Positions 1 through 34,081 of a stretch of DNA of 64,000 bases are shown here, piece after piece (position 1 is the stretch's first letter; each line of letters begins with the position of its first letter). Source of the DNA: an uncultured Candidatus Saccharibacteria bacterium (lineage in GTDB: Bacteria > Patescibacteriota > Minisyncoccia > Phycocordibacterales > UBA1006); the NCBI GenBank assembly GCA_964601935.1, contig CAZROP010000003.1, positions 3,366 to 67,365 on the forward strand. Direction: 5' to 3'. Both the position numbers and the translations under genes were made by a program. Under the pieces are notes generated by a model that saw only the letters and a list, made by a program, of their open reading frames with translations, searched no databases and was not told the DNA's origin.

Positions 1-1830
1 AGGTGGCGCGGTAATGGGTGGAAGACTACAGCAACAGCAGCAAGCCAAACTGTGGAGTTTCGTGCTGACGTGTTGCCTGTGCAGGGGGCTGCAAATCCTA
101 CTGGAACATGGCGACTGGGTGCGAGCATCAATGGGGGCGCATATCTCGATGGTATTATTGGTGTTACTTCGGGTGGAACAGGTAATACGACATCTATAGA
201 TATTGGTAACTTGAACGGTACAGGTGCTAGTGTGCGACTAGGTGGAACATCGGGAAATGTTCAAATGAACGCGGGTTACAACAATACATTCGCTGCTAAT
301 CGACTCACATTCTATAGTGGTGGTAATCAGAGTAGTATCCAAGGGTTTACAGGTGGCACGAATGTGGGTGTCGCAATAGGATATGCCCAGACTGGAACTA
401 ACCCAGGTGGTGCGAACACAACACTTTCAATCTTAGGTGCAAATGCGTTAAATACGGGTAAGGCATTAATGATTGAAAATAGCTCGCTGACTGATATATT
501 TACCGTTTTTAATAACGGTGACATTGATTATGGAGTATCAGGAGGTGGGAGGTATCGCGCTACATCAGGGGCGCACTCTATTGATCGCGGTAGCCTTTCA
601 ATACTTTATGACGGTGTAAACCCATCTTTTTCCCTTACTTCTTTTACTGCAGCACCTGTTGCTGGTACAATTACTGCAGCTTCGAGTAGTCCTGCTTTTG
701 CACCGACTTCAGGAACAGCACTTATGAATCTAGTGAGTTTGGCGCCTGTTATCAACCAAACCGGCGGAGCAAGCGGAATAACACGTGGAGTGTACATCAA
801 CCCAACATTGACCGCTGCTGCAGATTTTCGAGGATTAGAATTAGGTAATGGTCGTATATTACAAACAGACACCTATTCTTCAGGTTCAGGTTCGCTCGCA
901 CGATCTAGTTTGGAAAGTGCAGTGACCTGGAACACATCGGGTGCTCCTACTGCATGGAAATTAAATGTAACAGATACTGCAAGTGATGCAGCATCGCTCC
1001 TATTGGACCTGCAAACAGGTGGTACGAGTAGGTTCAAGGTGGCAAAGACGGGATCTACAACAATCGGTAGTACAGCCGTTGCTGATGGAACAAATTTGTT
1101 GAGATTAGAAGACGCAGACAGTGTGTGTGATTTTACCGCAAATGCCGGATCACCTGCGTGTGGGTCAGACGAGACCCTCAAAAAAGATATAGAGGAGTTG
1201 GAGATAGAAAGTATTTTGGCAAAGGTCTCTGCTCTACGACCGGTATCATTCCAGTGGAAGACAGATGGCGAAAACTCTCCAACGCAATTTGGATTTATTG
1301 CTCAGGAGGTAGGACAGCAGTTCCCTGAATTAGTAACTGAAAACACCTGGATAGATGGCACACAGAGAAAGTTCCTCAACACAGGAGGGTTGATGCCATA
1401 TGTGGTAGGCGCGATAAAACAGCTGGAGGTACGCTTGGCAGTTCTCGAAGAAAAGATAGGAGGTGTATTCGAAACATTATTTGCAAAAAAGGTTGAAACA
1501 GAGGAGCTCTGCGTAAAAGATGCTTCAGGTGCAAAGACCTGTATTACCAAGGCACAGTTGGATGCATTGCTATCGAATGCTGCTAGCGCAGGCTCATCAC
1601 AGACACCACCACCTAATACAGAAGATGATGTGCCGCCGTCAGATAACATACTACCAATAGGCGGTGATACTTCTCCACAAGAAGAGATTATTGTCGATGA
1701 TGAGGGTGGTGTGTCAGAAGAAAACACACCCGAAGAAAGTATCGTAGAAGATATTGTGCCAGAAGAAATTACTAACGAGAATATTCCAGAACAAGAAGTT
1801 AACCATGAAGTAATTGAGCCTACCATATGA
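1..1830 (+). CDS. Partial CDS with the 5' end outside the window. Gly/Thr/Asn-rich fibre-like surface protein with a C-terminal peptidase S74 (phage tail-fibre/endosialidase intramolecular chaperone) domain
   Basis: Frame 1 is open from nt 1; the listed GTG at 52 is internal. The N-terminal ~380 aa are G/T/N-rich beta-helix/fibre-like repeats. The C-terminus (DETLKKDIEELEIE...FQWKTDG...FGFIAQEVGQQFPELV...LMPYVVGAIKQLEVRLAVLEEKI) matches the auto-cleaving chaperone domain of phage tail spikes. Confidence 0.55.
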   Translation, partial: RWRGNGWKTTATAASQTVEFRADVLPVQGAANPTGTWRLGASINGGAYLDGIIGVTSGGTGNTTSIDIGNLNGTGASVRLGGTSGNVQMNAGYNNTFAANRLTFYSGGNQSSIQGFTGGTNVGVAIGYAQTGTNPGGANTTLSILGANALNTGKALMIENSSLTDIFTVFNNGDIDYGVSGGGRYRATSGAHSIDRGSLSILYDGVNPSFSLTSFTAAPVAGTITAASSSPAFAPTSGTALMNLVSLAPVINQTGGASGITRGVYINPTLTAAADFRGLELGNGRILQTDTYSSGSGSLARSSLESAVTWNTSGAPTAWKLNVTDTASDAASLLLDLQTGGTSRFKVAKTGSTTIGSTAVADGTNLLRLEDADSVCDFTANAGSPACGSDETLKKDIEELEIESILAKVSALRPVSFQWKTDGENSPTQFGFIAQEVGQQFPELVTENTWIDGTQRKFLNTGGLMPYVVGAIKQLEVRLAVLEEKIGGVFETLFAKKVETEELCVKDASGAKTCITKAQLDALLSNAASAGSSQTPPPNTEDDVPPSDNILPIGGDTSPQEEIIVDDEGGVSEENTPEESIVEDIVPEEITNENIPEQEVNHEVIEPTI

Positions 1831-3116
1831 TGACCACTCGATCGTATCTATTTTTGATAATATTTTTTCTGGTGAGCATAGGTTCGGTGTTTGCATCTGA
1901 ATCGAATGGTACTATTAATAGTGCTGCTAAATATTCGCGTATTTGTAGAAATGCACCGTGTTCGGTCTATAGTACAGTTAATTGGAAGCCAACAGGTACA
2001 ACGCCTGTAACAATCACGGATTCAGGGATTTCAGGATATGCATGGGGTGATGAGATTGGCTGGATCAATCTGGCGCCAACAGGAGCAGGGGTTACGGTCA
2101 ATCCTAGCACGGGCGCATTATCTGGCTATGCGTATTCTAATGTCAGTGGTTGGATTAATTTCAATCCAACAGATGTCCCGGGTGGAACTGATGTCGGTGT
2201 TTCGATTAACGGCAGTGGCGAGTTTGTGGGATGGGCGTGGGTGTCGAGTGCTCGTGGAGGGTGGATGAAATTTGACTGCACGTTATTGGCTACCTGTGTG
2301 ACTACTGATTGGCGCCCAATACCCAATAGAACAGTTGGCCCGGGCGGCGGTGGTGGAGGAGGGGGCGGCGGGGTAGGTGATGGCGGTACTGTTACTGGAA
2401 TTACTCTATCAGGAAGAGCATTCCCGTTGAGTAAAGTCACTGTGTTAAAGGATGGGCAATTTGCGCTATCTACAATCGCTGGACCTGATGCGCGTTTTGA
2501 AACAACTATTACTGATCTGACGTCGGGAACGTATACGTTTACCTTGTACACAGAGGATTCTGAGGGCAGGAGATCGGGGTCGTTCACTGCTCCGGTGCAG
2601 TTCACCGTTGGAACTGCTGCAAAGATAGGGGGAATATTTTTAGCACCCTCTATCGGAGTAGATAAAAGCGAGGTGAAGTATGGGGATAATATTGCCATAT
2701 TCGGTCAGTCTGTACCTGCTGCAACTGTGACGATATCAGTACATTCGCCAGAGGAAATATTCGTCAACGCTGTTACTGATACAGAGGGTGTATACTTGCA
2801 CGATTTCGACACTACGCAGTTATCATTGGGTGATCACGAAACAAAAGCAAAGGCAAAACAAGATAACCAGATTAGTAATTTCGGAGGATCAGTCGGGTTC
2901 AAGGTGGGTAATCGCAACGTTCCCATTGATGAGGAGGTAGAAGATTGTAAACAGCGAGGTGATGTAAATGGTGATTGTAGGGTCAACCTAGTAGATTTTG
3001 CGATTGCGGCATACTGGTACAAACGGTCAGCGCCACCAAAAGCCCCAGATATTAATGGTGACGGAAAGGTGGATCTGATAGATCTCAGTATCATGGCATT
3101 TAATTGGACAGGATAA
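1827..3116 (+). CDS. Secreted protein with a poly-Gly linker and C-terminal dockerin-like tandem Ca-binding repeats
   Basis: N-terminal signal peptide (MMTTRSYLFLIIFFLVSIGSVFASE). There is a G10 run. The C-terminus DVNGDCRVNLVDFAIAAYWY...DINGDGKVDLIDLSIMAFNW is a dockerin type-I-like duplicated EF-hand-like segment. Confidence 0.5.
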   Translation: MMTTRSYLFLIIFFLVSIGSVFASESNGTINSAAKYSRICRNAPCSVYSTVNWKPTGTTPVTITDSGISGYAWGDEIGWINLAPTGAGVTVNPSTGALSGYAYSNVSGWINFNPTDVPGGTDVGVSINGSGEFVGWAWVSSARGGWMKFDCTLLATCVTTDWRPIPNRTVGPGGGGGGGGGGVGDGGTVTGITLSGRAFPLSKVTVLKDGQFALSTIAGPDARFETTITDLTSGTYTFTLYTEDSEGRRSGSFTAPVQFTVGTAAKIGGIFLAPSIGVDKSEVKYGDNIAIFGQSVPAATVTISVHSPEEIFVNAVTDTEGVYLHDFDTTQLSLGDHETKAKAKQDNQISNFGGSVGFKVGNRNVPIDEEVEDCKQRGDVNGDCRVNLVDFAIAAYWYKRSAPPKAPDINGDGKVDLIDLSIMAFNWTG

Positions 3117-4147
3117 TACATATGAACACAAACTCTCAAGCAACATATCGTCGTAATATCATTTCAAACTGTGTTTCCATAAAGTCCTGCAAAACTCACA
3201 GAGCTCGAACAGTTTCGGACTTTTGGAAATCACAGCTGGAACGTCTCCCCAAAGCAGTTTTGAATTTCCGAAAAATAATCCATGAATTCCATTCTGGTTT
3301 TTCAGCGGTTTTATTTATCTTGGGAATGTTAGCACTGTTCCCTGGTATCGCGTTCGCTGCAGATATATCTATTATTTCTAAGGAATCTGTTGTAGGTATA
3401 GGGGAATTTGTACATGTTCAGGTTAGCATATCGAGCGAGCAAGAGGCAATTAATGCCGTAGAGGGCAGCATTGTATTTCCTGCAGATCTGCTGGAGCTTT
3501 CTCGGATTGAGGATGGGAATTCAACTATTTTGTTCTGGTTAGAGCGGCCGAAAGAACGTATCAAAGGAGAACTATATTTCTCGGGAATTATACCTGGCGG
3601 GTATCAGAAGTCTGATGGCAATGTCTTTCAGTTGGTATTCAAAGTTCGTGGTTCCGGCAAGGTAACAATTCAGGGTAAGGACATGCGAGTACTAAAAAAT
3701 GACGGAGATGGAACACTGGCAACGGTCACAATATCTCCTGCGACTGTTACTACGCAGCTAGCATCAACACATCAGGCGCAGGATAGAGAGTCAGAGGATA
3801 CAGACCCGCCAGAACCATTTACTGTTGAGGTTGTACAGGATACCAATCTGTTTAACAATGCATGGTTTTTGGTTTTTGCGACACAGGACAAAGGGGTAGG
3901 TGTCGATCGATATGAAATATGCGAAGGTAAAACTTGTACCACAGGAGACAGTCCTTATCCTCTTCAAAACCAGAAACTATCTGATACAATTATCGTGAGA
4001 GCAATTGACAAAAACGGAAACGAAAGAATTGCCAAGGTTCCAGGATCGTATACTAGTACACTGATCATTGTACTGGCAGTCGCAATCGTTGTATGTATCA
4101 TAATCTTTTTACGAAATCGAATCTCAAAACTATTATGGAGGCGGTAA
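3104..4147 (+). CDS. Membrane-anchored protein with an N-terminal cohesin-like beta-sandwich domain. The start codon is uncertain
   Basis: The signal-like segment LFILGMLALFPGIAFA is followed by a ~140 aa domain with a cohesin-like pattern (GEFVHVQVSISS...AVEGSIVFPADLLEL...). There is a C-terminal TM helix (LIIVLAVAIVVCIIIF). It is paralogous to the next gene. Confidence 0.4.
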   Translation: MDRIIHMNTNSQATYRRNIISNCVSIKSCKTHRARTVSDFWKSQLERLPKAVLNFRKIIHEFHSGFSAVLFILGMLALFPGIAFAADISIISKESVVGIGEFVHVQVSISSEQEAINAVEGSIVFPADLLELSRIEDGNSTILFWLERPKERIKGELYFSGIIPGGYQKSDGNVFQLVFKVRGSGKVTIQGKDMRVLKNDGDGTLATVTISPATVTTQLASTHQAQDRESEDTDPPEPFTVEVVQDTNLFNNAWFLVFATQDKGVGVDRYEICEGKTCTTGDSPYPLQNQKLSDTIIVRAIDKNGNERIAKVPGSYTSTLIIVLAVAIVVCIIIFLRNRISKLLWRR

Positions 4148-5253
4148 ATCGCAAGCTATGGGTTCTTGCCGTCCTTTTGATCCTGCCTTTTTCTGCAGAC
4201 GCGGCATCTCTGGTGCTCTCGCCACCATCTGATACGTGTACTGTAGGGTCGGATTGTAAAATGGTGGTGCGCGTATCCAGTACTGACTCGGTCAGTGCAG
4301 CAGAGGGTGTTATTTCTTTTCCTTCGGATAAACTAGAGGTTAAAAGCATCTTTAAATCACCATCAGTATTCAATCTATGGATTCAAGAACCTGGGTATTC
4401 TAATTCCAAAGGTACGGTAAATTTCGAAGGCGTAGTTCTGAACCCGGGCTTTACCGGGAATGGAACTATTCTGACTATTGTATTTCGGGCAAAGTCAGCA
4501 GGTACCGCATCATTATCATTTTCTTCGGCACAGGTGCTCGCTAATGATGGGCTCGGAACTAATATACTGAGTTCACGTGGGAAGGGTACGCTTACTCTGG
4601 TGCAGGCGCCTGTAAAAGAGCCTGAACCTGTTGTAAAGCCAGAGCCTATTCCTGTAGCGCCTCCAGTACCAGTACCTGTAGAGATTCCTGAACCCGTTGT
4701 TCCTATTCCAGAAATTCAGGTAATAACACCAGATCTTTCTACTTTGGCTGCAGACAAAGAGATAGATTCTTCTGTTTCCTGGAAGCTGAGCGATAACCTA
4801 GTCCGTATCCTTTCTATTGCCGCACCACTGCTACTTCTATTACTGCTAATCGGAGTACTCACGAGATCTTCTCGCGATAGGAAGCTGAGCGACAAGAAGA
4901 TGCTATTCGAGGCGCGTGTCAAAGCATACTCTGCTATTACAGGGCGTATATTCAATCTATTCTTGGATCCTGATATTACCACGCTATCGGATGGTGCTGT
5001 TATGTGGGCAAAGTTGAATCAGCTGCTGTCAGAGGCGATGTTGGTTGCAAGCCATGCGTTGGCAAATCTACTGGTTGAGTACAAGGTCAAAGTCTTTGAA
5101 TTCCATCAGTCATTGAACAAGAAAAACGAGAGCGAAACGCAGCGGCTGCATGCTGAGCTGGTACGACTGGTTGGCAGAATCCATGCCCAGATGAGAAAGG
5201 AATTGCATGTAGATAATAAATCTGTATTTAATGATGAGGGTAAGATTTCATAG
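4135..5253 (+). CDS. Cohesin-like domain membrane protein, paralogous to the upstream gene, with a Pro-rich linker, a TM helix and a cytoplasmic tail
   Basis: Signal peptide MEAVNRKLWVLAVLLILPFSADA. The cohesin-like block aligns with the upstream gene (VRVSSTDSVSAAEGVISFPSDKLEV / VQVSISSEQEAINAVEGSIVFPADLLEL). The PEPVVKPEPIPVAPPVPVPVEIPEP linker is followed by a TM segment. Confidence 0.45.
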   Translation: MEAVNRKLWVLAVLLILPFSADAASLVLSPPSDTCTVGSDCKMVVRVSSTDSVSAAEGVISFPSDKLEVKSIFKSPSVFNLWIQEPGYSNSKGTVNFEGVVLNPGFTGNGTILTIVFRAKSAGTASLSFSSAQVLANDGLGTNILSSRGKGTLTLVQAPVKEPEPVVKPEPIPVAPPVPVPVEIPEPVVPIPEIQVITPDLSTLAADKEIDSSVSWKLSDNLVRILSIAAPLLLLLLLIGVLTRSSRDRKLSDKKMLFEARVKAYSAITGRIFNLFLDPDITTLSDGAVMWAKLNQLLSEAMLVASHALANLLVEYKVKVFEFHQSLNKKNESETQRLHAELVRLVGRIHAQMRKELHVDNKSVFNDEGKIS

Positions 5254-5320
5254 TCGCAAGCCTCTTTTTAACTCTGAAGAGTGGCTGTGGACAGGGTGTC
5301 TGTAGTAGCGGGACTGATTC

Positions 5321-5329
5321 TGTTATAAT
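5321..5329 (+). promoter_or_regulatory. Candidate extended -10 promoter element (TGnTATAAT) upstream of the SBBP repeat gene
   Basis: TGTTATAAT lies ~55 nt upstream of the ATG at 5384. No clear -35 was found. Confidence 0.25.
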
Positions 5330-5383
5330 GATTATCTATACAGTTCTTGCAGCTTGTTTATTCAGTAATATAACTAATTTATT

Positions 5384-8300
5384 ATGACGACGATGTCCAA
5401 AATCATTCGCTCTTTCTCTATCGGTTTATTGTCAGTACAGATTATAGGGGGGCATAGTGTGTACGCGCTATCTCAACCTATTATTGCTACCCCTGATTTA
5501 TCTGCTCCGATCCGTTCCCATATTGAAAGCGGCAGGGTTGCGCTCCCTTTTATTAAAAATAATGGACAATATTCGATACCTGAAAAGGTAAAATACTATG
5601 TTGATACGTTCGCAGGGACAGTGTTCGTAGAGCGGAACCGCTTGGTCTATTCTTTGCCCGATGTTGGTAATGAATCTAGCCGATATATTATTTCCGAGTC
5701 ATTTGTGGCGCCTGATATCAGGAGGAAAGTGCATCAAGTAGTCCCGTCAGAGACTCAGGTATCTTATTTTTTGGGAAAAGATAAGTCTGGATGGACGAAG
5801 GGTGTTCCTACTGCGCACGAGATCAGTTTGGGTAACGTTTGGAATGGCATAGAAGTATCGCTCAAAGCGTATAATAACACTATCGAGAAGATATTCACTG
5901 TTTTGCCCGAAGGTAGCGTGTCAGACATTAACATGTCGCTAGATGGTGTGACTTCTTCGCGAATTAACGAGTACGGAGAACTGGTATTGGTTACTCCTGA
6001 AGGAGAGCTTGTCATGTCAGCACCTATTGCCTTTCAGAATATTGACGGCAAGAAAGTGTCTCGTAATGTCGTCTATGTTGTATCCAATAATCACTACGGG
6101 TTTTCTGTTCCAGAATACGATCACCGCTATCCATTGGTTATCGATCCATTGATACAGAGTACGTATCTGGGTGGTTCAGGTACTGAAGAAGTCCTCGGGT
6201 CACCGCTATCCATTGATTCTTCCGGTAATGTTTACTTTTTAGGTGTCACGGCATCGAGTAGTTACCCAGGAGTAGCGGGCGGCTATCAGTCGGTAAAATC
6301 TACCGGTAATGATATAGTAATTTCAAAATTGAACAGTAGTCTGACTACCTTGATACAATCTACCTACTTGGGCGGTACAGGTGATGATGTTGCTACGCGC
6401 GGATATGTGGCGTTCGATTCCTCGGGCAATGCATATGTGTTAGGTACTTCGAACTCAACAGATTTTCCAGGAGTAGCGGGCGGCTATCAGTCGGTAAAAT
6501 CTACTGGGTATGACTTTGTTATCTCAAAATTGAATAATAGCCTAACGACACTCATTCAGTCGACATACGTAGGGGGTGTTGGCACAGAAGCTGCCTATGG
6601 AGCAGTATCGTTCGATTCGACAGGTAACTTATTTTTCATGGGAGCCAATAGTGGCGGGGGGTTCCCTGGGACTACAGGAGGATACCAGACCGCTAATGCA
6701 GGTGGCGGAGGAGATCTAGTTATCGTGAAGATGAATAGCGGGCTGACGTCATTAGCACAAGCTACCTATTTAGGTGGTGCTGGGCTCGAGAATGGATTCG
6801 AGCGTGTAGCATTCGACGCAAGTGATAATGTATATGTGACAGGTCATTCAACTGCAGCGGGTTTCCCTGGTACAACCGGAGGTGCTCAGCCTGCATACGC
6901 AGGAGGTGGCAGCGACATTATTGTGGCAAAGCTCAATAACGCATTAACAAGTCTGATACAGTCTACCTATCTAGGTGGAACTGGTGTTGACGCCACCTAC
7001 GGTATGGTAACATTCGATACAGGCGGAAATATCTATATTACAGGTGAAACAACCTCTACTAATTTCCCTGGGACTACAGGAGGATACCAGTCTGCAAAGT
7101 CAGGAAGTGATGATTTCATTATTACAAAATTGAATAATGGATTAACATCAATAATACAATCTACCTATCTGGGCGGTACTGGTAGCGATTGGGCTGATGG
7201 GTCAGTACGCCTGGATTCTACCGGGAATGTATTTATTGGGGGTAAGACGTCATCCTCAGATTTTCCAGGTACTACTGGCGGATATCAGAGTAGTTATGCA
7301 GGAAGTGGAGATCTCGTCATTGCAAAGCTAAATAGCGGATTGACATCGTTAACCCAGGCAACTTATCTAGGGGGAACCGGTCTGGAGGATACTGACGGGA
7401 CTGTATGGTTAGATACCGCAGGAAATGTGTATATTGGTACAGATACTTCATCTACTAACTTCCCAGGTACTACTGGTGGATACCAATCCGCAAATGCGGG
7501 CGGAGTTGACTTTATTATTGCAAAACTTACTAATGACTTGCAGGCAACGAAGGTTGCGAGTGTTGGTTCGTCTGCTGGTAATGGGAGTTATGGGGTAGGG
7601 GCGAGTATACCCATTGCTGTGCAGTTTAATGGTCCTGTAGTCGTAACAGGTACACCACGATTGACGTTAGAAACAGGTGGTACAGATGCAGTAGTTGATT
7701 ATACTTCCGGTTCGGGTACTAGTACTTTGATATTTACCTATACTGTCGGCGCAGGCCATACGAGTGCTGATTTGGATTATGGAGGAACTGGTTCACTAGC
7801 CCTGAATGGGGGAACTATCACTACTGCGGTAGATGGTTTTGCGGCTACGCTGACGTTGCCTACTCCTGGCGCAGCAAATAGTCTGGGTGCGAACAAGGCT
7901 CTCGTGATAGATACGACCGCGCCGAGCGCACCCAATGTATCACTCGTTACACCGGTAACCAGTACCACAGTCATGACTAACCCTGTCTCAGTGGCGGGAT
8001 CGGGCGGGTCTGTAGAGGCTAATAGCACAGTCACTCTTTTAGAAAATGGTGTTCCTGTCTGTACTAGTACGGCAGCTGGCGATGGTTCGTTTAGTTGTCT
8101 GCTCGGACAGGTGGGTGGTGTTCATTCGTACACGATAACAGCAACTGATAGTTCAGGAAATATATCTGTACCATCCGTATATTCATTGATGTATGCACTA
8201 TCTAGCGCTGGTGGATCTAGTGGTGGAGGCGGATACCTGGCTCCTTTCAATGCTATGGCGGCTCCAATAAGGACCGACTCGGTAACTACATCAAAGATTA

Positions 8301-8506
8301 CTGTGAGACAGGTTCAGGAGTGGTTGCGTAAATTAGGCTATACTCAAATTCATATAACAGGAAAGTATAATGTAGCAACAATAAAAGCGCTTCGAGCACT
8401 CAAAAAGCAGTACTCGATACAAACAAAGTATCCAATAAAGAAAATGATAACTGATCCTGTGGTAGTAGCAAAGCTGCAAGACTTAGTACTTCTCGGGGTG
8501 CGCTAG
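5384..8506 (+). CDS. Large secreted beta-propeller (SBBP-type) repeat protein with Ig-like segments and a C-terminal peptidoglycan-binding-like domain
   Basis: There are ~10 tandem ~67-aa repeats (L[TI]QSTYLGG[TS]G.D....FDSSGN.Y..G.T.S.DFPGTTGGYQS....D..I.KLN) typical of Pfam SBBP beta-propeller repeats. The C-terminal VRQVQEWLRKLGYTQIHITGKYNVATIKALRALKKQY resembles PG_binding_1. An N-terminal signal is present. Confidence 0.6.
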   Translation: MTTMSKIIRSFSIGLLSVQIIGGHSVYALSQPIIATPDLSAPIRSHIESGRVALPFIKNNGQYSIPEKVKYYVDTFAGTVFVERNRLVYSLPDVGNESSRYIISESFVAPDIRRKVHQVVPSETQVSYFLGKDKSGWTKGVPTAHEISLGNVWNGIEVSLKAYNNTIEKIFTVLPEGSVSDINMSLDGVTSSRINEYGELVLVTPEGELVMSAPIAFQNIDGKKVSRNVVYVVSNNHYGFSVPEYDHRYPLVIDPLIQSTYLGGSGTEEVLGSPLSIDSSGNVYFLGVTASSSYPGVAGGYQSVKSTGNDIVISKLNSSLTTLIQSTYLGGTGDDVATRGYVAFDSSGNAYVLGTSNSTDFPGVAGGYQSVKSTGYDFVISKLNNSLTTLIQSTYVGGVGTEAAYGAVSFDSTGNLFFMGANSGGGFPGTTGGYQTANAGGGGDLVIVKMNSGLTSLAQATYLGGAGLENGFERVAFDASDNVYVTGHSTAAGFPGTTGGAQPAYAGGGSDIIVAKLNNALTSLIQSTYLGGTGVDATYGMVTFDTGGNIYITGETTSTNFPGTTGGYQSAKSGSDDFIITKLNNGLTSIIQSTYLGGTGSDWADGSVRLDSTGNVFIGGKTSSSDFPGTTGGYQSSYAGSGDLVIAKLNSGLTSLTQATYLGGTGLEDTDGTVWLDTAGNVYIGTDTSSTNFPGTTGGYQSANAGGVDFIIAKLTNDLQATKVASVGSSAGNGSYGVGASIPIAVQFNGPVVVTGTPRLTLETGGTDAVVDYTSGSGTSTLIFTYTVGAGHTSADLDYGGTGSLALNGGTITTAVDGFAATLTLPTPGAANSLGANKALVIDTTAPSAPNVSLVTPVTSTTVMTNPVSVAGSGGSVEANSTVTLLENGVPVCTSTAAGDGSFSCLLGQVGGVHSYTITATDSSGNISVPSVYSLMYALSSAGGSSGGGGYLAPFNAMAAPIRTDSVTTSKITVRQVQEWLRKLGYTQIHITGKYNVATIKALRALKKQYSIQTKYPIKKMITDPVVVAKLQDLVLLGVR

Positions 8507-8547
8507 TCCAGTAAATCGTACATTCGAATAGTCTGTTGCTAATTTAT

Positions 8548-8580
8548 AAAAACTTGCCGCTACTATGCGGCAAGTTTTTG
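8548..8580. terminator. Bidirectional rho-independent terminator between the convergent SBBP gene and pyk
   Basis: AAAAACTTGCCGC-tactat-GCGGCAAGTTTTT is a perfect 13-nt stem with A/T runs on both sides. Confidence 0.6.
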
Positions 8581-8598
8581 ATCGTATATGTTTTCTAG

Positions 8599-10035
8599 TT
8601 ATAGAATAGTATGAACTATGATACTGTTTGTACTACCTGGTTCGCCCATGGGGAATCCTGCAGATACTATTACTTTCTCACCTTTCTTCATGTTGAATCG
8701 GTCACGAAGAATACTATTAAGCTCCTGTTCAACAATAGTGAATTGGGGTTCAGAGAATGCATGCATAACTGATCGTATTCCATACGATAATGTGAGTTGA
8801 TTTGCAACAGACTCATGCGGGGAAATCGCTATAATGCGTAGATCAGGGCGGAATCGTGCCAGTGTGCGTGGTGTGCCGCCTGTTTCTGTCAGGCACACCA
8901 ATGCCTGCGCCTCGATTGATTCGGCTAGGTGGATGATTGCTTCGGAGATTGCCTGGGTCTGTGTTTCAGAAATATCCACGATATGAGCAGTATTCATAGG
9001 CTCTATATCACGGGCAACGCGTGACATTACTGCAATGGATTCAACAGGGAATTTCCCTATAGAAGATTCGCCTGAAAGCATCACAGCGTCAGTACCATCG
9101 AGGATCGCGTTAGCTATATCGGACACCTCTGCACGCGTAGGAACAGGGGATTGCTCCATACTGTCGAGCATCTGTGTGGCGGTAATGACCGGCTTGCCGT
9201 AATTGCGGGCGATTTCAATCATGCGTTTCTGCTGGAGGGGGACATGTTCTGCACCGATTTCTACCGCCAAATCTCCACGTGCTACCATAATACCATCAGT
9301 CGCTGTTATGATTTCTTCCAGTTGCTCGATTGCTTCTTGAGTTTCTATCTTCGCAATGATGAGTGCTTGTGATCCAGCTTTCTTTAATATTTTTCGTAAA
9401 TCATCCACGTCTTTTGCGGTACGTACAAATGATAATGCTATAAAGTCTGCATTCTGTTGTATTGCGAACTTTACATCCTTTTTATCCTTGTCAGTCAGCG
9501 CAGGAATGGATAGATATGCTCCGGGAATATTCAACCCTTTTTTACTGCCCAACATTCCGCCTGTAATGACCTTGCATACAATTTCATCTTTGCTGTTGGT
9601 GGACAGTATCTCGAGCTTCTTTTTGCCGTCTTCTATCAGAATATGTCCGCCTTTTTTGACTTCGGCAGGCAGTGCTGCATAGTTGATACTAATACGTGAT
9701 GGGGTGCCAACGCATGGTTCTGTGGTGAGAGTTACCTTTGCGCCTTGCTTTAGCTCTATTGATCCGTTCGCTACCTCTCCTATACGGATTTTGGGACCAG
9801 CCAGATCTACCAAAATACCAACACGTTTGCGTACACTGGTCATTACTTCCCGCACTGTTACGATGCGTTCCGTATGTTCGTCATGGCTGCCATGAGACAT
9901 GTTGCAGCGCACCACATTCAGCCCAGACAGGATCATTTGTTTTAGTGTTGCTGGGTCAGACGATGCCGGTCCCAGTGTTGCGACTATTTTGGTTCTTTTA
10001 AGGCGTAGGTTTTCGGTTGCAGGGTGTAGTGACAT
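8599..10035 (-). CDS. pyk: Pyruvate kinase
   Basis: The sequence KTKIVATLGPAS...NVVRCNMSHGSHDEH...MVARGDLAVEIG carries the canonical PK motifs. I chose the MSLHP start because the longer N-terminus (to 10068) overlaps a terminator hairpin. Confidence 0.85.
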   Translation of the reverse strand: MSLHPATENLRLKRTKIVATLGPASSDPATLKQMILSGLNVVRCNMSHGSHDEHTERIVTVREVMTSVRKRVGILVDLAGPKIRIGEVANGSIELKQGAKVTLTTEPCVGTPSRISINYAALPAEVKKGGHILIEDGKKKLEILSTNSKDEIVCKVITGGMLGSKKGLNIPGAYLSIPALTDKDKKDVKFAIQQNADFIALSFVRTAKDVDDLRKILKKAGSQALIIAKIETQEAIEQLEEIITATDGIMVARGDLAVEIGAEHVPLQQKRMIEIARNYGKPVITATQMLDSMEQSPVPTRAEVSDIANAILDGTDAVMLSGESSIGKFPVESIAVMSRVARDIEPMNTAHIVDISETQTQAISEAIIHLAESIEAQALVCLTETGGTPRTLARFRPDLRIIAISPHESVANQLTLSYGIRSVMHAFSEPQFTIVEQELNSILRDRFNMKKGEKVIVSAGFPMGEPGSTNSIIVHTIL

Positions 10036-10057
10036 AGGGCTGTATTTTAGCATAGAT

Positions 10058-10110
10058 TTCTGTAACAAAAATAGCGGTATCTTTATATTTTATATAAAGA
10101 TACCGCTATT
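10058..10110 (-). terminator. Rho-independent terminator (minus strand) downstream of the 10160-10579 gene
   Basis: A perfect 19-nt inverted repeat AATAGCGGTATCTTTATAT/ATATAAAGATACCGCTATT is followed on the minus strand by TTTTTGTT. Confidence 0.5.
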
Positions 10111-10159
10111 GAAGACCAATACGAATATTTACTTAACCCTTACTTCTCTAATACCATGA

Positions 10160-10579
10160 CTACACCGAGCGCTGCCACGCTCGGTAGTCCCGCACGATTG
10201 CCCAGATAAAGGCGACGATAACACATATTACGGTAACTGGCGCTATAAGAGTCAAATAATAATGCCCATACACACCAATAAACCTATAAAATGGGTTGTC
10301 CACGAGTTCCGTGTAGTCGTTCGTTGGAAAGCACCATCGGGATTTTCCAATCAGTGCCCCAACCAGACTAAATGTTCCTAAAATACTCATACACCAGGGC
10401 GTGGAGCGCTGTCCCTTATGGGTGTGTCGCCACCACGCGACCCCTGTGACTGTAATCGAAGTGATTAAGCCGATAGTAATCCACCCAGGGTTGTCCCAGA
10501 GGTAATAACATGCAAATCCAGCCATGAGGCCAAGGCCGCCTAATGTGGTCACCAAGATGAACAGTATTTTCACTTTCAT
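10160..10579 (-). CDS. Hypothetical integral membrane protein (4 predicted TM helices)
   Basis: ORF of 139 aa with multiple hydrophobic helices and no recognisable motif. Confidence 0.45.
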   Translation of the reverse strand: MKVKILFILVTTLGGLGLMAGFACYYLWDNPGWITIGLITSITVTGVAWWRHTHKGQRSTPWCMSILGTFSLVGALIGKSRWCFPTNDYTELVDNPFYRFIGVYGHYYLTLIAPVTVICVIVAFIWAIVRDYRAWQRSV

Positions 10580-28955: not shown

Positions 28956-29281
28956 GTACTAAAGCAGAAAAAACAATAAGTGAATCAATGAAGGTGGAGG
29001 TTGCCTTTCCTGGGTGCGTTCATGTCGAATTAGTGCAAGCGAACGATTTGAAACATTATGAGATATTTCTGTGGTTAGTTTCGCTGATGGCCTCGATCGC
29101 TTCTGGGTTTTGGGTGTCCTATGTGTGTACAGCGCCTGTTGATAATGCTATTGGTTGGTCCGCTGTTGCATTTACAGTACTAACTCTCGTATTTGGATCG
29201 ATTGCGTATTACTACAGATCTAGGATCAACGATACAAAGATAAAAAAGACATTCTTACTTGAAAGCTTTAATAACAAATAA
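28952..29281 (+). CDS. Small 2-TM membrane protein of unknown function, translationally coupled to the R-M operon
   Basis: An ATGA overlap with the upstream hsdS stop. It has two hydrophobic helices and ends 5 nt before the hsdM start. Confidence 0.4.
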   Translation: MSTKAEKTISESMKVEVAFPGCVHVELVQANDLKHYEIFLWLVSLMASIASGFWVSYVCTAPVDNAIGWSAVAFTVLTLVFGSIAYYYRSRINDTKIKKTFLLESFNNK

Positions 29282-29285
29282 ACAT

Positions 29286-30797
29286 ATGAACAACAAAAAA
29301 TACACACAAGAAGACCTCAACAAAATCCTTTGGGACGCAGCGGATTCTTCTCGTACACAGGTGGATGCCGGAATCTACAAGGACTACGTGCTTGCGATTC
29401 TTTTCTTCAAATACCTGAGCGACCTCTCGAAGAAAAAGCTCAACGAGTACAAGGAGCGTTTCGGGAACGATGAAAAGCGTACCGAAGAAAAAATGAAGCT
29501 CGATCGATTCTATCTTCCTCCGAAGTCGTCATTTGATTACATCTATTCAATCATTGAGCAGGACAATCTTGGTGAGGAAATAAACAAAGCACTTCATCGT
29601 ATTGAGGATGCCAACAAGGAAAAGCTTGACGGTGTATTTTCTGTAGATTTCAACTCAGAATCAACTCTTGGAAAACTTGCGGAACGAAATAAAATGCTTC
29701 GTCATCTTATACAGGACTTCGCAAAGATGGATCTCGCTGATGTGAATGACGACATCATCGGAAATTCGTACATGTACATGATCGAACGCTTTGGAGCCGA
29801 TGCTGGTAAAAAAGCTGGAGAATTTTTCACTGTGCGTAACGTTGCAAAGCTTGTGGCAAAGCTCGCAGAACCAAAGGCCGGTGCTCGTATCTGTGACCCT
29901 TGTGCTGGATCTGGAGGCCTCCTCCTTCTTGCTGGTGAAGAAGTTGAAAAGCAGGGTTCAAAGAACTACGCTCTCTATGGACAAGAATCAACAGGTTCAA
30001 CATATCAACTCGCTCGTATGAACATGTTCCTTCACGGAAAGGACTCAGCACGTATCGAATGGGGCGACACGCTCAATAATCCACTCCTTGTAGAAAATGA
30101 TCAGCTCATGAAGTTCGACACGATCGTTGCGAATCCTCCATTCTCTCTCAAAAAATGGGGTGCCGAGCATGCTGATGCAGATAAGTACAAGCGATTCTGG
30201 CGCGGTACTCCACCAAAGGATAAGGGTGATTTTGCATTCATCGCTCACATGGTTGAAGCAGCAAAGCCAAAGACTGGTCGCATCGCAGTCATTGTTCCGC
30301 ACGGCGTTCTTTTCCGAGGTGGTGCCGAAGGTAAGATTCGCGAACAACTTCTTAAAGAGAACATTGTCGAGGCAGTCATCGGACTTCCTGCAGGACTTTT
30401 CCAGACAACTGGTATTCCCGTAGCTGTCCTTGTAATTGATCGTTCAAGAGAAAAAGGTGGAGCAAATGAAAACAAAAAAGATGTCTTCTTCATCGAAGCG
30501 TCAAAGGAGTTTAAGTCAAACAAAGCTCAGAATATTCTTACCGATGAAAATATCGAGAAGATTTACTCTACGTACAAAACTCGAAAGGACGTAGCGAAGT
30601 TCGCTCGCAAGGTAAGTCTCAAGGAAATCGAGGAGAATGATTTCAATCTCAACATCACTCGTTATGTGGACACATTCACAGAGGAAGCCCCCGTAGATAT
30701 CAAAGCAAACTTGAAGGAGCTTGCTGAGCTTGAGCCACAGCTCGAGAAGCTTGAGAAACAAATGGTCGTATATCTAAAGGAACTAGGAATCAAATAA
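29286..30797 (+). CDS. hsdM: Type I restriction-modification N6-adenine DNA methyltransferase subunit M
   Basis: The HsdM N-terminal domain (LWDAADSSR....YKDYVLAILFFKYLSD), the AdoMet motif I (CDPCAGSGG) and the catalytic NPPF (VANPPFSLKKW) are present. Confidence 0.9.
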   Translation: MNNKKYTQEDLNKILWDAADSSRTQVDAGIYKDYVLAILFFKYLSDLSKKKLNEYKERFGNDEKRTEEKMKLDRFYLPPKSSFDYIYSIIEQDNLGEEINKALHRIEDANKEKLDGVFSVDFNSESTLGKLAERNKMLRHLIQDFAKMDLADVNDDIIGNSYMYMIERFGADAGKKAGEFFTVRNVAKLVAKLAEPKAGARICDPCAGSGGLLLLAGEEVEKQGSKNYALYGQESTGSTYQLARMNMFLHGKDSARIEWGDTLNNPLLVENDQLMKFDTIVANPPFSLKKWGAEHADADKYKRFWRGTPPKDKGDFAFIAHMVEAAKPKTGRIAVIVPHGVLFRGGAEGKIREQLLKENIVEAVIGLPAGLFQTTGIPVAVLVIDRSREKGGANENKKDVFFIEASKEFKSNKAQNILTDENIEKIYSTYKTRKDVAKFARKVSLKEIEENDFNLNITRYVDTFTEEAPVDIKANLKELAELEPQLEKLEKQMVVYLKELGIK

Positions 30798-30801
30798 ATA
30801 T

Positions 30802-31302
30802 ATGGCAGATACAAAAAGACAAGTTTTCTATAGTTTCCACTATAAGCCAGATGCGTGGCGTGTTTCTCAGGTTCGAAATATCGGAACTATTGAGGGTAAC
30901 AAACCTGCTCCAGATAACGATTGGGAAACTGTTACAAAGGGTGGTGATGAGGCTATAAAGAAATGGATCAAAGACCAGATGAAGTATCGATCTTGCACTG
31001 TTGTTCTCGTTGGAAAAGATACTGCCAACCGAAAGTGGATAAACCATGAAATTGTCGAGTCATGGAAGGCTGGTATGGGTGTTGTTGCGATTCATATATA
31101 CGGTTTGAAAAATCACGACGGCTACATCACCACTCAGGGAAGTAATCCATTTGATTACATATCTTACGGAGACAAAAAGCTCTCTTCGATTGCCAAATGC
31201 TATAACCCTGCAGGAACCAATAGCAAAGAAAGATATGACTGGATTTCACGGAACATGTCAGCCATGGTCGAAGAAGCTGTAAAAATCAGAAATAACAATT
31301 AA
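30802..31302 (+). CDS. ThsB-like TIR-domain protein (Thoeris ThsB / DUF1863 TIR-like family)
   Basis: KRQVFYSFHYKPDAWRVSQVRN...CTVVLVGKDTANRKWINHEIVES...VVAIHIYGLKNHDGYITTQGSNPFDYISY aligns with my recollection of B. cereus ThsB (KRVFFSFHYQDVIDFRVNVVRN...VTCVLIGSQTFNRRWVRYEIMKS...IIGIHINAFKDKYGNIKSKGPNPFDYLGY). That includes the putative catalytic Glu in (Y/H)EI. Confidence 0.65.
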   Translation: MADTKRQVFYSFHYKPDAWRVSQVRNIGTIEGNKPAPDNDWETVTKGGDEAIKKWIKDQMKYRSCTVVLVGKDTANRKWINHEIVESWKAGMGVVAIHIYGLKNHDGYITTQGSNPFDYISYGDKKLSSIAKCYNPAGTNSKERYDWISRNMSAMVEEAVKIRNNN

Positions 31303-31307
31303 TATTT

Positions 31308-31712
31308 ATGAGTACAAACGAAAAAAGACTAAAGCATTTGGAACTGATACAAGGAGTGATAACGAGAATGGGTAGTAACCTATTCACTCTTCGTGGGTGG
31401 ATGATAACGCTCGTTGTTGGTCTCTCTGTGGCTTTCTTGGAAGTTGGCCGCAACGAGCTGCAAGTAATATTGGTTCTAGTTATTTTGATATTCTGGGTAC
31501 ATGATGCTTATTTTCTCTCCCTGGAGCGTGGATACCGATGCTTGTACAACAAAGTAAGGAAGTTGGATGAGGATGCTATTGATTTCTCAATGGATATTTC
31601 AGAGTTTGATGTTTTGAAAACAATATCAATTTGGTACTGCATGTGGTCTAAGACATTGTCCTTTTTCTATGTACCGACACTAATATTAATAGCCCTAATA
31701 AGTATATTCTAG
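31308..31712 (+). CDS. Small 3-TM membrane protein. Candidate pore-forming effector (SLATT-like?) of the TIR cassette
   Basis: 134 aa with an amphipathic N-terminal helix, TM1 (LFTLRGWMITLVVGLSVAFL), TM2 (VILVLVILIFWVHDAYFL), a ~45-aa loop and a C-terminal TM (FFYVPTLILIALISIF). It is tightly packed between two TIR genes. The effector role is inference. Confidence 0.45.
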   Translation: MSTNEKRLKHLELIQGVITRMGSNLFTLRGWMITLVVGLSVAFLEVGRNELQVILVLVILIFWVHDAYFLSLERGYRCLYNKVRKLDEDAIDFSMDISEFDVLKTISIWYCMWSKTLSFFYVPTLILIALISIF

Positions 31713-31714
31713 CC

Positions 31715-32401
31715 ATGGATACATCTCGAAAAATATTTGTTTGCTATAAATACAAAGATTGGGGTGTTCAGCCTCTTGTTGAATATACGCCGACAGAGGA
31801 CACAGACTATCTCCACACACCTCGACATTATGTCGATAAAATAATAGAAGTTGTTGGAGCTGATCATATCTATAAAGGAGAGCGAAGTGGTGAAAGTATG
31901 GGAGATTTGGCGGACGACACCATTGACTCAAAGCTCAAAGAGAAAATCTTCGACAGCTCTGTCACTGTCGTGCTGATCTCGCCAAATATGTTTGACAGGT
32001 CAACATTAGAAAAAGATCAGTGGATCCCTAACGAAATTTCCTACTCACTCCGCTATAAAACTAGAGGATATAGAACAAGTAATCCAAATGCGATGCTTGC
32101 AGTAGTTCTGCCTGATAGAAATGGTAGCTATGATTATGCTGTGGTCCATCAAAATTGTGTGACAACATGGCGCACAGATACCTATTTTACTATCCTGAAC
32201 GAAAATATGTTCAATAGAAAAAGCAAGAATCAAAGACCTTGTGGTACATGCGGCAGTCACCACCATTTTGGAGATGATCATTCATATATTCACCCAGTCA
32301 AATGGTCTGACTTCATTTCTAACCACAATATCTATATCGATCATGCTTTATCACTAAGAGAAAACTTGCATCATTTCGATATCACAAAAATGCACGATTA
32401 A
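31715..32401 (+). CDS. Second TIR-like (DUF1863/ThsB-type) domain protein with a Cys/His-rich C-terminal extension
   Basis: KIFVCYKYKD...SSVTVVLISPNMFDRS...QWIPNEISYSL follows the TIR-like signature (F.SY..D....VVLIS.N...S.W...EI.Y.L). The C-terminus is CGTCGSHHHFGDDHSYIHP. Confidence 0.5.
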   Translation: MDTSRKIFVCYKYKDWGVQPLVEYTPTEDTDYLHTPRHYVDKIIEVVGADHIYKGERSGESMGDLADDTIDSKLKEKIFDSSVTVVLISPNMFDRSTLEKDQWIPNEISYSLRYKTRGYRTSNPNAMLAVVLPDRNGSYDYAVVHQNCVTTWRTDTYFTILNENMFNRKSKNQRPCGTCGSHHHFGDDHSYIHPVKWSDFISNHNIYIDHALSLRENLHHFDITKMHD

Positions 32402-32406
32402 TCATT

Positions 32407-34077
32407 ATGAAAAAAAACTCTCAATTAAAACTACATATCTCCCTAAGCAAGGAACACAATAAGTATCAGTCCGACGTGGTCGATGCCTTTAAGGGTGTAG
32501 ATGTTTCCTTTGACGGTGGACTCATGAGGTTTTCTTCTGGTGAGTTGGCTATGCAGATCATGCTGGCTATCGGTACAGGTGTTATATCGAGTGCTATGTG
32601 GGACGTCATTAAAGCTGGAATAAAAAAGCTTTATAAGAAGTTCAATACCTCACGCATCACCCTCAGAGATTCAGATTCGATAATGTATACAATTAAGCCA
32701 GATTTCTCTGTAACTGTTTTAGTTGTTCCAGATAGAGCTAAGGAGTTTGAACATATTAAGACATTTGATGATCTTGTTATTTATTTTCAAAATAACTCCA
32801 ACCCAAAAAATAATACTGGTTGGCAATTAGTGCCAGTAAGCGATGTTTTTACGTTTGTGAAATCTTACGCGTTTTCTAGAGACAACCTAACTAATGGAGT
32901 ATTAACAGAAGAAAAGATTGGCAACATACACTATGGTGATATCCATGCCACATATACATCAGAAAATGTAGATCTATCAAAGATACAAATACCAATTGTA
33001 AAAGAGGCTAGTTTTAATCCTAAAAAAGAAGATCTTCTTAAGGATGGTGACTTGATAATGGCTGATGCTTCTGAGGATTATGATGGTATTGGCGTAACTA
33101 TTTCAGTTCATGGTATCGGCAAAAATAAAGTCGTGGGAGGTCTACATACTTTTGTACTTAGAGATGAAAAAGGTAAGACCAGTGAATACTATCGTCAATA
33201 TATTTTTCTAAATAGAGAGATCAGAAATAAGCTACAAAAAGTAGCCAACGGTGTTTCTGTGTATGGAATCTCAAAAACAGCTCTCTCAAAAATGGAGCTG
33301 CCGCTACCATCTCTGTCGGAACAAAATCGTATTGTCTCAGTCCTTGAAACTTGGGATAAATCAATCGAGAAGCTTGCTCAAAAAATTGAAGCAAAGAAGC
33401 AGGTCAAGAAAGCCCTGATACAGGATTTACTAACCGGCAAGAAACGATTACCGGGATTTAATAAAAATTGGGAAATCACTGAACTTAAAAAGATTGCAGA
33501 AATATTTTCTGGTGGCACCCCTGATACTGGCAATAGGGATTTTTGGGACGGCAATATAAATTGGATAACTCCAACTGAAATTACTAAAACAGGTAAATAT
33601 ATCATTCAGAAGACAGAGAAAAAGATTACAGATTTGGGTCTTAAAAATAGTTCTGCAAAACTACTCCCTAAAAATTCTTTAATTATATGCACCCGTGCGA
33701 CTGTTGGGGAATGTGCGATTTCTACATATCCCATTTCAACCAATCAGGGTTTTAAGAATCTTGTTCCAAAGAGTAATACAAATGTTGAGTACCTTTATTA
33801 TTTTATAAAATCAATTAAAAATAGGCTTATAAAACTAGGATCAGGCAGTACGTTCTTAGAGGTTTCAAAAGGTGATATTGAAAAGCTAAAAATACATTTA
33901 CCGCCTGTAGATGAGCAAGTCGCAATTGCCCAGATACTAGCGACGGCAGACAAAGAAATCACCGAACTCGAAAAGAAACTCTCAATACTCAAAGAACAGA
34001 AACGATACCTCCTCAATAATCTGATCACCGGCACGATCCGCACACCCGAAACATTATCAACCAAACTAACCCAATAA
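32407..34077 (+). CDS. hsdS: Type I restriction-modification specificity subunit, full length with two target-recognition domains
   Basis: The central conserved region LPLPSLSEQNRIVSVLETWDKSIEKL and the distal one LPPVDEQVAIAQILATADKEITELEKKL are present. The two variable TRDs give 556 aa. Confidence 0.85.
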   Translation: MKKNSQLKLHISLSKEHNKYQSDVVDAFKGVDVSFDGGLMRFSSGELAMQIMLAIGTGVISSAMWDVIKAGIKKLYKKFNTSRITLRDSDSIMYTIKPDFSVTVLVVPDRAKEFEHIKTFDDLVIYFQNNSNPKNNTGWQLVPVSDVFTFVKSYAFSRDNLTNGVLTEEKIGNIHYGDIHATYTSENVDLSKIQIPIVKEASFNPKKEDLLKDGDLIMADASEDYDGIGVTISVHGIGKNKVVGGLHTFVLRDEKGKTSEYYRQYIFLNREIRNKLQKVANGVSVYGISKTALSKMELPLPSLSEQNRIVSVLETWDKSIEKLAQKIEAKKQVKKALIQDLLTGKKRLPGFNKNWEITELKKIAEIFSGGTPDTGNRDFWDGNINWITPTEITKTGKYIIQKTEKKITDLGLKNSSAKLLPKNSLIICTRATVGECAISTYPISTNQGFKNLVPKSNTNVEYLYYFIKSIKNRLIKLGSGSTFLEVSKGDIEKLKIHLPPVDEQVAIAQILATADKEITELEKKLSILKEQKRYLLNNLITGTIRTPETLSTKLTQ

Positions 34078-34081
34078 ACAT

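Follow-up and report, generated by a model that had tools for sequence, protein, structure and literature searches.

Cohesin and dockerin modules are already known outside cellulosomes, and the NCBI labels "cohesin domain-containing" and "dockerin type I repeat-containing" are already attached to such proteins from the Candidate Phyla Radiation (CPR; Patescibacteria). How these ultra-small bacteria build and anchor the appendages with which they attach to their hosts is largely unknown, and a CPR-specific pilus was described only in 2026. The PamA and PamB pili of Candidatus (Ca.) Mycosynbacter amalyticus were solved by cryo-electron microscopy; the pam operon encodes the transmembrane (TM)-anchored PapD-like chaperones PamC and PamD, and PamR, an RbmA-like protein with two FnIII domains, was proposed as the membrane tether, which is a prediction (Troman et al., bioRxiv 10.64898/2026.03.03.709456). 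The same preprint reports that tail-fibre-like genes co-localise with CPR pilus operons, and makes no mention of cohesin or dockerin. Here we analysed a stretch of 64,000 nucleotides (nt), hereafter the window, from an uncultured Candidatus Saccharibacteria bacterium (contig CAZROP010000003.1). Five consecutive open reading frames (ORFs) on its + strand, labelled g1 to g5, occupy positions 1-8506 and encode a phage-type fibre protein (g1), a secreted dockerin adaptor (g2), two cohesin proteins (g3 and g4) and a propeller protein (g5). Genes g2 to g4 belong to a dockerin-cohesin-cohesin trio that is conserved across the phylum. We consider the best explanation to be that the trio is a membrane anchor tethering the fibre g1 through dockerin-cohesin binding, with a probability of about 0.5.

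A phylum-wide dockerin-cohesin-cohesin trio

Two conserved cohesin motifs were used as a pattern over the GTDB contigs, with one genome per species. At least 599 stretches matched, and at least 553 of them encode a cohesin relative. We examined 80 of the matching loci with 10-kb flanks, searching their six-frame ORFs with pieces of g1-g5. Two cohesin ORFs were present in 72 of the 80, first a g3-like one of roughly 300 amino acids (aa) and then a long g4-like one. A gene encoding two immunoglobulin-like (Ig) domains and a dockerin lay directly upstream, on the same strand, in 60 of the 61 loci with at least 1.3 kb of DNA upstream of the first cohesin gene, at distances of -70 to +466 nt. With its order of dockerin, short cohesin and long cohesin, the trio is syntenic across the phylum. 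Profiles of the dockerin and of the cohesin gave no match in 2.9 million IMG/VR viral contigs, and g2-g4 matched no PHROG family. Because of the phylum-wide synteny and the absence from IMG/VR and PHROG, we regard the core as a three-gene module of the cell that has been conserved, neither a phage cassette nor an isolated case. Literature searches, which covered the searchable library only, returned no account of a cohesin-dockerin operon in CPR; the three-gene operon, its place beside Pam genes and its fibre-linked variant (S74/GWIN, described below) are apparently undescribed in that literature.

The trio of the window has the following features (window positions):

1827-3116, + strand: g2, secreted adaptor, 429 aa
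1827-1895, + strand: signal peptide of g2
1896-2321, + strand: GWIN domain of g2
2340-2381, + strand: glycine run of g2 (12 Gly)
2394-2909, + strand: two Ig domains of g2 (weak Pfam Big_6 match)
2949-3113, + strand: type I dockerin at the extreme C-terminus of g2 (Pfam Dockerin_1)
3122-4147, + strand: g3, short cohesin protein (alternative start 3104)
about 3299-3361, + strand: hydrophobic signal or anchor of g3
3395-3727, + strand: putative cohesin of g3 (homology to g4; Pfam below cutoff)
about 3821-4048, + strand: Ig-like domain of g3
about 4058-4111, + strand: C-terminal TM helix of g3
4135-5253, + strand: g4, long-type cohesin protein, shortened here (alternative start 4093)
4135-4203, + strand: signal peptide of g4
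4204-4614, + strand: cohesin of g4 (Pfam, AlphaFold2, Foldseek)
about 4627-4734, + strand: Pro-rich linker of g4
4792-4848, + strand: TM helix of g4
4849-5250, + strand: helical cytoplasmic tail of g4

Pfam Dockerin_1 (PF00404) matched aa 378-423 of g2 with 33.2 bits (cutoff 22.9). The AlphaFold2 (AF2) model of g2, with a mean predicted local distance difference test score (pLDDT) of 82, places the dockerin helices at 388-396 and 417-428, both with pLDDT about 90. The two calcium loops read DVNGDCRVNLVD and DINGDGKVDLID, with D or N at loop positions 1, 3, 5, 9 and 12. A strict F-hand regular expression under-counted such loops (22/67), and column counts over 66 loci were used instead. In loop 1, calcium positions 1/3/5/9/12 are D/N/D/N/D in 61 to 66 of the 66 loci; in loop 2, D5 and D12 are found in all 66 and N3 in 60. 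The family consensus, GDLNxDxRVNLVDFSIAAYWYKR..PP...DLNGDGKVDLVDFSIMAFYWTG, is near-invariant across the phylum. The g2 module is a duplicated F-hand type I dockerin in which each calcium loop is followed by a helix. The Ig-Ig-dockerin part shares 55-58% identity with more than 1000 database proteins. Single-sequence PDB searches with g2, g3 and g4 were weak or empty, and the Foldseek matches of the g2 model in PDB and BFVD were dominated by tandem Ig domains.

In g4, Pfam Cohesin (PF00963) scored 24.9 bits, above the cutoff of 24.1. The AF2 model draws on 35 family members and reaches pLDDT about 95 for residues 20-160, and all 50 of the PDB matches listed by Foldseek were cohesins (TM-score 0.7-0.83 relative to the target). 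The best of them was 2xdh, the non-cellulosomal cohesin of Archaeoglobus fulgidus (E 2.4e-9, TM-score 0.77, root-mean-square deviation 2.7 Å), so that the predicted structure confirms a cohesin-type nine-stranded jelly-roll beta-sandwich. The full-length cohesin-family profile matched only Ig-type adhesins among PDB sequences. The g3 and g4 proteins are paralogous over the cohesin domain (29% identity, E 7e-16), and by this homology g3 is a putative cohesin as well; in position and architecture it matches the roughly 300-aa cohesin gene of the 80 related loci. Searches with g4 led to a large family of roughly 580-aa proteins, widespread in Patescibacteria, whose members consist of a signal peptide, a cohesin, Big_13-type Ig domains, a TM helix and a charged helical cytoplasmic tail. 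The g4 protein is a short member with a Pro-rich linker in place of the Ig domains.

These results largely agree with a first-pass annotation of the window made from its sequence. Its secreted, Gly-rich, dockerin-like protein is borne out by the Pfam score and the 12-Gly run, with calcium-binding residues present on alignment and conserved over 66 loci, and the cohesin fold for which it suggested structure prediction was recovered by AF2 and Foldseek in g4. It had also described two paralogous cohesin-like proteins with a C-terminal TM helix and a Pro-rich stalk. The paralogy, the cohesins and the linker (in g4) stand; the TM helix of g4 is not strictly C-terminal, because about 130 cytoplasmic residues come after it. 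The idea of a cohesin-dockerin scaffold does not fit, as there is no scaffoldin: each cohesin protein carries a single cohesin, and each locus has a single dockerin gene.

These counts also bear on the idea of a miniature cellulosome-like system displaying polysaccharide-degrading enzymes. Cohesin and dockerin are the defining cellulosome modules, which speaks for it. Against it, the dockerin is joined to Ig domains only, Pfam and NCBIfam gave no catalytic domain and no carbohydrate-binding module (CBM) in any of the five proteins, and neither a multi-cohesin scaffoldin nor dockerin-bearing carbohydrate-active enzymes were found in these loci. A cellulosome-like function is poorly supported, and we consider it extremely improbable.

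Clustering of the flanking ORFs in the related loci revealed two further conserved same-strand families upstream of the trio in about 40 loci. The first has the Pam pilin C-terminal domain (NCBIfam NF058581, CPR_Pam_pilin_C, E 1e-44). The second consists of Ig-like proteins of roughly 315 aa that have a TM helix at the C-terminus; its only matches were weak ones to WxLIP_PGBD, with none among PDB sequences. By profile hidden Markov models (HMMs), Pam-type genes lie upstream in 27-29 of the 40 loci with more than 3.5 kb of upstream DNA. HMMs from both families found no Pam pilin or chaperone homologue in the 64-kb window, and g1-g5 had no NCBIfam match; by NF058581 / NF058579, the window locus is not a Pam pilus operon.

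Seven other loci have a giant protein and a roughly 140-aa protein upstream in place of the Pam genes. They include L016 (1179-7064), L013, L064, L072 and L073; the giants are about 1900-2600 aa, and that of L016 carries 12 LVIVD repeats. These variants suggest that the giant proteins are interchangeable cargo of the trio. Pfam was mostly uninformative on the large upstream proteins of variant loci, the exceptions being LVIVD (L016) and DUF7483 (L039). Four large proteins upstream of the trio (L015:3036-5882, L069:3151-5550, L038:6705-8171 and L045:5093-7201) share the motif GWPQ(I/V)WQNPPFPPE(I/V)QK after an N-terminal TM segment. The motif may direct processing or sorting; its L015 bearer has a Pam-pilin C-terminal domain.

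A full dockerin/cohesin/cohesin trio occurs in Ca. Microsyncoccus archaeolyticus PMX.50 (L038, 8934-12543), where genes for a 488-aa protein and a TM-anchored Ig-like protein precede it. This organism is reportedly an enrichment-cultured Patescibacterium, proposed to be a parasite of methanogenic archaea, and is a possible experimental system. The essential Southlakia dockerin protein SEML1_0315 was considered as a trio member and rejected: it is a lone 927-aa Ig protein encoded between hydrolase and tRNA genes. The examined supplements of the Southlakia paper contained no cohesin terms.

The S74 fibre and the GWIN domain

The gene upstream of the trio in the window has these features:

1-1830, + strand: g1, phage-type fibre protein (609 aa from the window start, which truncates the 5' end)
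about 493-1062, + strand: shaft repeat region of g1 (53-55% identity to repeats of the tail fibre P0001)
1165-1338, + strand: S74 intramolecular chaperone domain of g1 (Pfam Peptidase_S74)
about 1498-1827, + strand: acidic low-complexity tail of g1

Peptidase_S74 (PF13884) matched aa 389-446 of g1 with E 3.6e-16 and 59.6 bits (cutoff 22), and the alignment spans the full 58-position profile. The domain opens at aa 389 with SDETLKKDI, a Ser followed by a Lys at +5, which is the arrangement of the self-cleaving chaperone domains of endosialidase-type fibres. By profile match and by this start g1 has an S74 chaperone domain, with putative autocleavage and trimerisation. Among PHROG families g1 matched those of tail fibres (phrog_5668, E 6.5e-18). 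A GTDB scan with g1 as query found no relative; its 489 homologues are mostly unnamed CPR proteins, many of them in chromosomal housekeeping contexts. We regard g1 as phage-derived in ancestry yet of a class that is common in CPR chromosomes. The first-pass annotation was right in assigning a fibre protein with an S74 domain; its remark that S74 is unusual outside a prophage does not apply to CPR.

P0001, the best homologue of g1, lies on a phage-like 35-kb contig (L002, JGI Ga0163148_10001144) that is probably a phage of a CPR host. The P0001 fibre has no detected S74 domain, and its gene is followed by two small genes and then a VanY/PG-binding endolysin (phrog_2649, E 6.5e-45); a match to the SU10 adaptor is weak. 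This contig and the PHROG tail-fibre matches would fit a locus at the end of a prophage, or one left over from a phage, made up of a tail fibre and phage accessory genes, the more so as the DNA upstream of g1 lies beyond the window. However, g2-g4 are chromosomal, phylum-wide and not found in the viral contigs, GC content is uniform across the region, and pyk, infA and ribosomal protein genes come downstream. In the 62 kb downstream of g1 we found no capsid, portal, terminase or tail genes, the window holding no DNA upstream of it. Three related loci have housekeeping genes and no prophage upstream of the fibre: in L087 the fibre gene is preceded by DNA ligase and TPR protein genes, and L004 and L005 are flanked by gatB, gap and transketolase genes. 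A prophage origin is poorly supported, and we judge it very unlikely.

The N-terminal 145 residues of g2 are foreign to the common Ig-dockerin protein. We name this domain GWIN, after its repeated motif G-(Y/W)-A-W-x-x-x-x-G-W-I-N-F; it has four invariant cysteines. The family comprises 3330 clusters at E <= 1e-3 among 1.84 billion representatives. GWIN stands almost always directly after the signal peptide and is fused to VWA, SdrD_B, CarboxypepD_reg, Big or cadherin-like domains. Neither Pfam nor NCBIfam has a model for it, and its profile matched nothing among PDB sequences at E <= 10. GWIN is combined with Ig-Ig-dockerin in only about 14 database proteins, and none of 80 JGI GWIN loci has a dockerin.

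We inspected five GWIN-Ig-dockerin loci, that of the window and those of four other species. In all of them an S74 protein takes the upstream place that Pam genes hold in most loci, and the two cohesin genes follow downstream:

Window: S74 gene upstream of the GWIN-dockerin gene, Pfam E 3.6e-16
L006: S74 protein of 1707 aa upstream of the GWIN-dockerin gene
L086: S74 with E 9e-18 upstream of the GWIN-dockerin gene
L087: S74 protein of 2241 aa, E 8e-7, upstream of the GWIN-dockerin gene
L088: S74 with 21.2 bits, just below the cutoff; a TPR gene lies between it and the g2-like gene

L086 is the locus most closely related to the window, its g2 being 70% identical. Of the JGI loci closest to g2, roughly 25 could be evaluated for the gene that directly precedes GWIN: it encodes an S74 protein in 13, a Peptidase_G2 intramolecular chaperone protein in one and a pectate-lyase-like beta-helix protein in one. 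Dockerin-less GWIN genes follow S74 fibre genes in L004 and L005. Because distant GWIN genes lack such a neighbour, the S74-GWIN pairing is real but confined to the GWIN subfamily closest to g2. The five GWIN-dockerin loci, together with the GWIN genes that follow fibre or spike genes, support the view that the fibre gene and the cohesin-dockerin genes are functionally linked, as had been proposed when the window was first read.

The breadth of the GWIN family leads to the main rival explanation, in which the trio is a general envelope module, g2 is a displayed head whose GWIN domain binds a wall polymer or host ligand, and g1 is a neighbour anchored or released independently. Thousands of secreted proteins carry GWIN at the N-terminus, ahead of adhesin-like C-terminal domains of various kinds; near many of the distant GWIN genes there is no fibre gene, and the aromatic G-W repeats with four invariant cysteines would suit a ligand-binding solenoid. 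Such a head would not account for the S74 protein upstream in 5/5 GWIN-dockerin loci or for the overlap of g1 and g2 by ATGA (1827-1830), and the fibre-like, spike-like or large unannotated gene found immediately upstream in about 16 of the roughly 25 closest GWIN loci can hardly be accounted for unless the two are functionally linked. We regard this explanation as possible but rather doubtful.

The same gene pair recalls phages, in which a partner or chaperone gene lies just downstream of the fibre gene. By analogy, g2 could be a Tfa/gp38-type fibre assembly or tip-adhesin protein sitting on the distal C-terminal tip of g1, its dockerin linking, for example, the tips to cohesins of sister cells. 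The order of fibre and then partner would mirror the phage pairs, and GWIN proteins resemble gp38-type adhesins in joining a conserved N-domain to variable C-terminal domains. However, the cohesins that would pair with g2 are TM-helix proteins of the same operon, which makes tethering in cis the simpler arrangement, and the GWIN, dockerin and cohesin families were absent among IMG/VR or PHROG matches. We consider this arrangement unlikely.

Among GWIN genes elsewhere, that of L119 (5760-10328; JGI Ga0268278_1000065) has a diversity-generating retroelement directly upstream. Its variable repeat (5760-5898) and template repeat (6120-6258) differ mostly at template adenines (23/26 mismatches), and they are followed by a reverse transcriptase gene (6670-7827) and the GWIN gene (7806-10328). 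In about ten JGI loci (L131, L132, L134-L137, L139, L141, L142 and L145), the more distant GWIN genes are directly preceded, at about 100 nt, by a conserved ORF of 59 aa.

The proposed anchor and its surroundings

If the trio tethers the fibre, g2-g4 would represent, in this genome, a non-cellulosomal cohesin-dockerin envelope module found throughout Patescibacteria. The single-cohesin proteins g3 and g4 would be held in the cytoplasmic membrane by their TM helices, with the cohesins outside, and the g2 dockerin would plug into one of these cohesins or both. The wall would be crossed by the Ig domains together with the Pro-rich and Gly-rich linkers, and the N-terminal end of g2 would hold a surface filament. 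Here the filament would be the trimeric, phage-derived fibre g1, matured by S74 autoproteolysis and held via GWIN, which would reach outward from the cell and act as an adhesin towards host or prey. Most genomes would have a Pam pilus in its place, because the pilin and chaperone genes lie directly upstream. Every physical contact in this model, dockerin with cohesin as well as GWIN with fibre, is predicted, as are the orientation of the fibre, its role in attachment, the choice of cohesin and the reason for keeping two. The g2 protein resembles a Rosetta-stone fusion, joining fibre-associated and anchor-associated domains, and we therefore rate tethering as the best explanation.

Several points weigh against it. 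The window opens inside g1 and leaves the DNA upstream of g1 outside. The Pfam Cohesin match in g3 (E 0.005) reaches 17.5 bits where the cutoff is 24.1. For GWIN, neither a profile search of PDB nor Foldseek in PDB and BFVD gave a recognisable fold relative, and the domain could instead bind a wall polymer or host ligand. L088, with the interposed TPR gene and the sub-cutoff S74 score, is a less clear case of the pairing, and distant GWIN genes (L123-L169) have other neighbours, without S74. Finally, the very high conservation of the Ig-dockerin part could mean a housekeeping envelope role and not that of an adhesin.

A broader form of the tethering explanation is that the trio is a universal Patescibacteria membrane socket for interchangeable filaments, plugged in non-covalently: Pam pili in most lineages, S74 fibres here and giant LVIVD propellers in others. 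We put this forward tentatively, as less probable than the tethering of g1. If true, such a socket would supply the anchoring step that is missing from the account of the CPR pilus, and would be a central component of the machinery for episymbiotic attachment.

Genes g1-g4 abut or overlap. The alternative starts of g3 at 3104 or 3122 place it against the end of g2 at 3116, and the start of g4 shares 13 nt with the end of g3. The last of the five genes, separated from g4 by a 130-nt gap, has the following features:

5384-8506, + strand: g5, secreted SBBP propeller protein, 1040 aa
5549-6151, + strand: DUF7948 of g5 (E 3.6e-44)
about 6149-7543, + strand: seven SBBP blades of g5 (E 4.5e-21)
between the blades and PG_binding_1, + strand: Ig-like region of g5
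8303-8422, + strand: PG_binding_1 (PF01471) of g5 (24 bits, cutoff 23)

Seven LIQSTYLGGxG repeats are spaced by about 66 aa, and from its domain matches g5 is predicted to be an SBBP (PF06739) propeller with a C-terminal peptidoglycan-binding domain. The 80 + 3 related loci, among them the closest one, L086, showed no g5 homologue next to the trio. We conclude that g5 is a separate wall-bound propeller protein that merely neighbours the conserved module and lies outside it. The first-pass annotation had interpreted all five genes as one attachment apparatus, and this is partly supported. Five same-strand genes with the named domains are indeed there, and every domain call holds against the ORF list and Pfam, including the 1040-aa propeller repeat protein with its peptidoglycan-binding tail; the conserved core is g2-g4, with g1 as a variable partner and g5 absent from all related loci.

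The remaining window is ordinary chromosome, with genes for pyruvate kinase (pyk), infA, rpsM/K/D, rpoA, rpoB/C, dnaG, rpoD, a type I restriction system, tRNA synthetases and infB. All named homologues are from Patescibacteria/CPR (Nomurabacteria, Paceibacterota, Uhrbacteria, Wildermuthbacteria and others). A promoter and terminator scan gave signals no better than those of shuffled sequences. The restriction-modification system is complete (29259-37273), with hsdM (29259-30797), hsdS (32407-34077), hsdR (34082-37273) and two small ORFs between hsdM and hsdS. The lowest GC content of the window (0.36) is in the 2-kb bin 32001-34000, which holds most of hsdS.

Comparison with known systems

A conserved cohesin-dockerin joint that is usually encoded beside filament genes is a concrete candidate for the tether of CPR appendages. 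It can be tested biochemically, with small soluble modules and an expected calcium-dependent binding. If confirmed, it would extend cohesin-dockerin biology from enzyme display to filament anchoring, and the fibre-linked variant of the window would be a natural fusion connecting the fibre and anchor gene sets.

Like phage fibres of the S74/endosialidase type, g1 has an S74 domain with the Ser/Lys motif, PHROG tail-fibre matches and a partner gene immediately downstream. Unlike them, it lies in a bacterial chromosome beside membrane-anchor genes, and its partner is a GWIN-Ig-dockerin protein without phage relatives. The likeness to the Pam system is found mainly in the related loci, where Pam-type pilins and a TM-anchored Ig-like protein with the architecture of PamC/PamD are encoded upstream of the trio; in addition, RbmA (4be5) is among the fold matches of g2. 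The window differs in having no Pam pilin or chaperone homologue in its 64 kb.

With the anchoring of cellulosomes by type I/II cohesin-dockerin pairs in Clostridium thermocellum (scaffoldins CipA, OlpA/B/C), the trio shares a plug-and-socket tethering of secreted proteins, of high affinity and calcium-dependent there and predicted here, and the cohesins of OlpA and OlpC (3ul4, 4dh2) are among the structural matches of g4. It differs in having no multi-cohesin scaffoldin, surface-layer homology (SLH) domain, CBM or enzymes, and in being anchored by TM helices instead of SLH or sortase. Non-cellulosomal pairs, as in A. fulgidus (2xdh) and the toxin complex of Clostridium perfringens (2vo8, 2jh2), resemble the trio in having single modules and no cellulosome, and a duplicated F-hand dockerin with intact calcium ligands. 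In contrast to these pairs, the modules described here form a fixed three-gene operon of one dockerin and two TM-anchored cohesins, conserved across a phylum, next to filament genes and with no attached enzyme.

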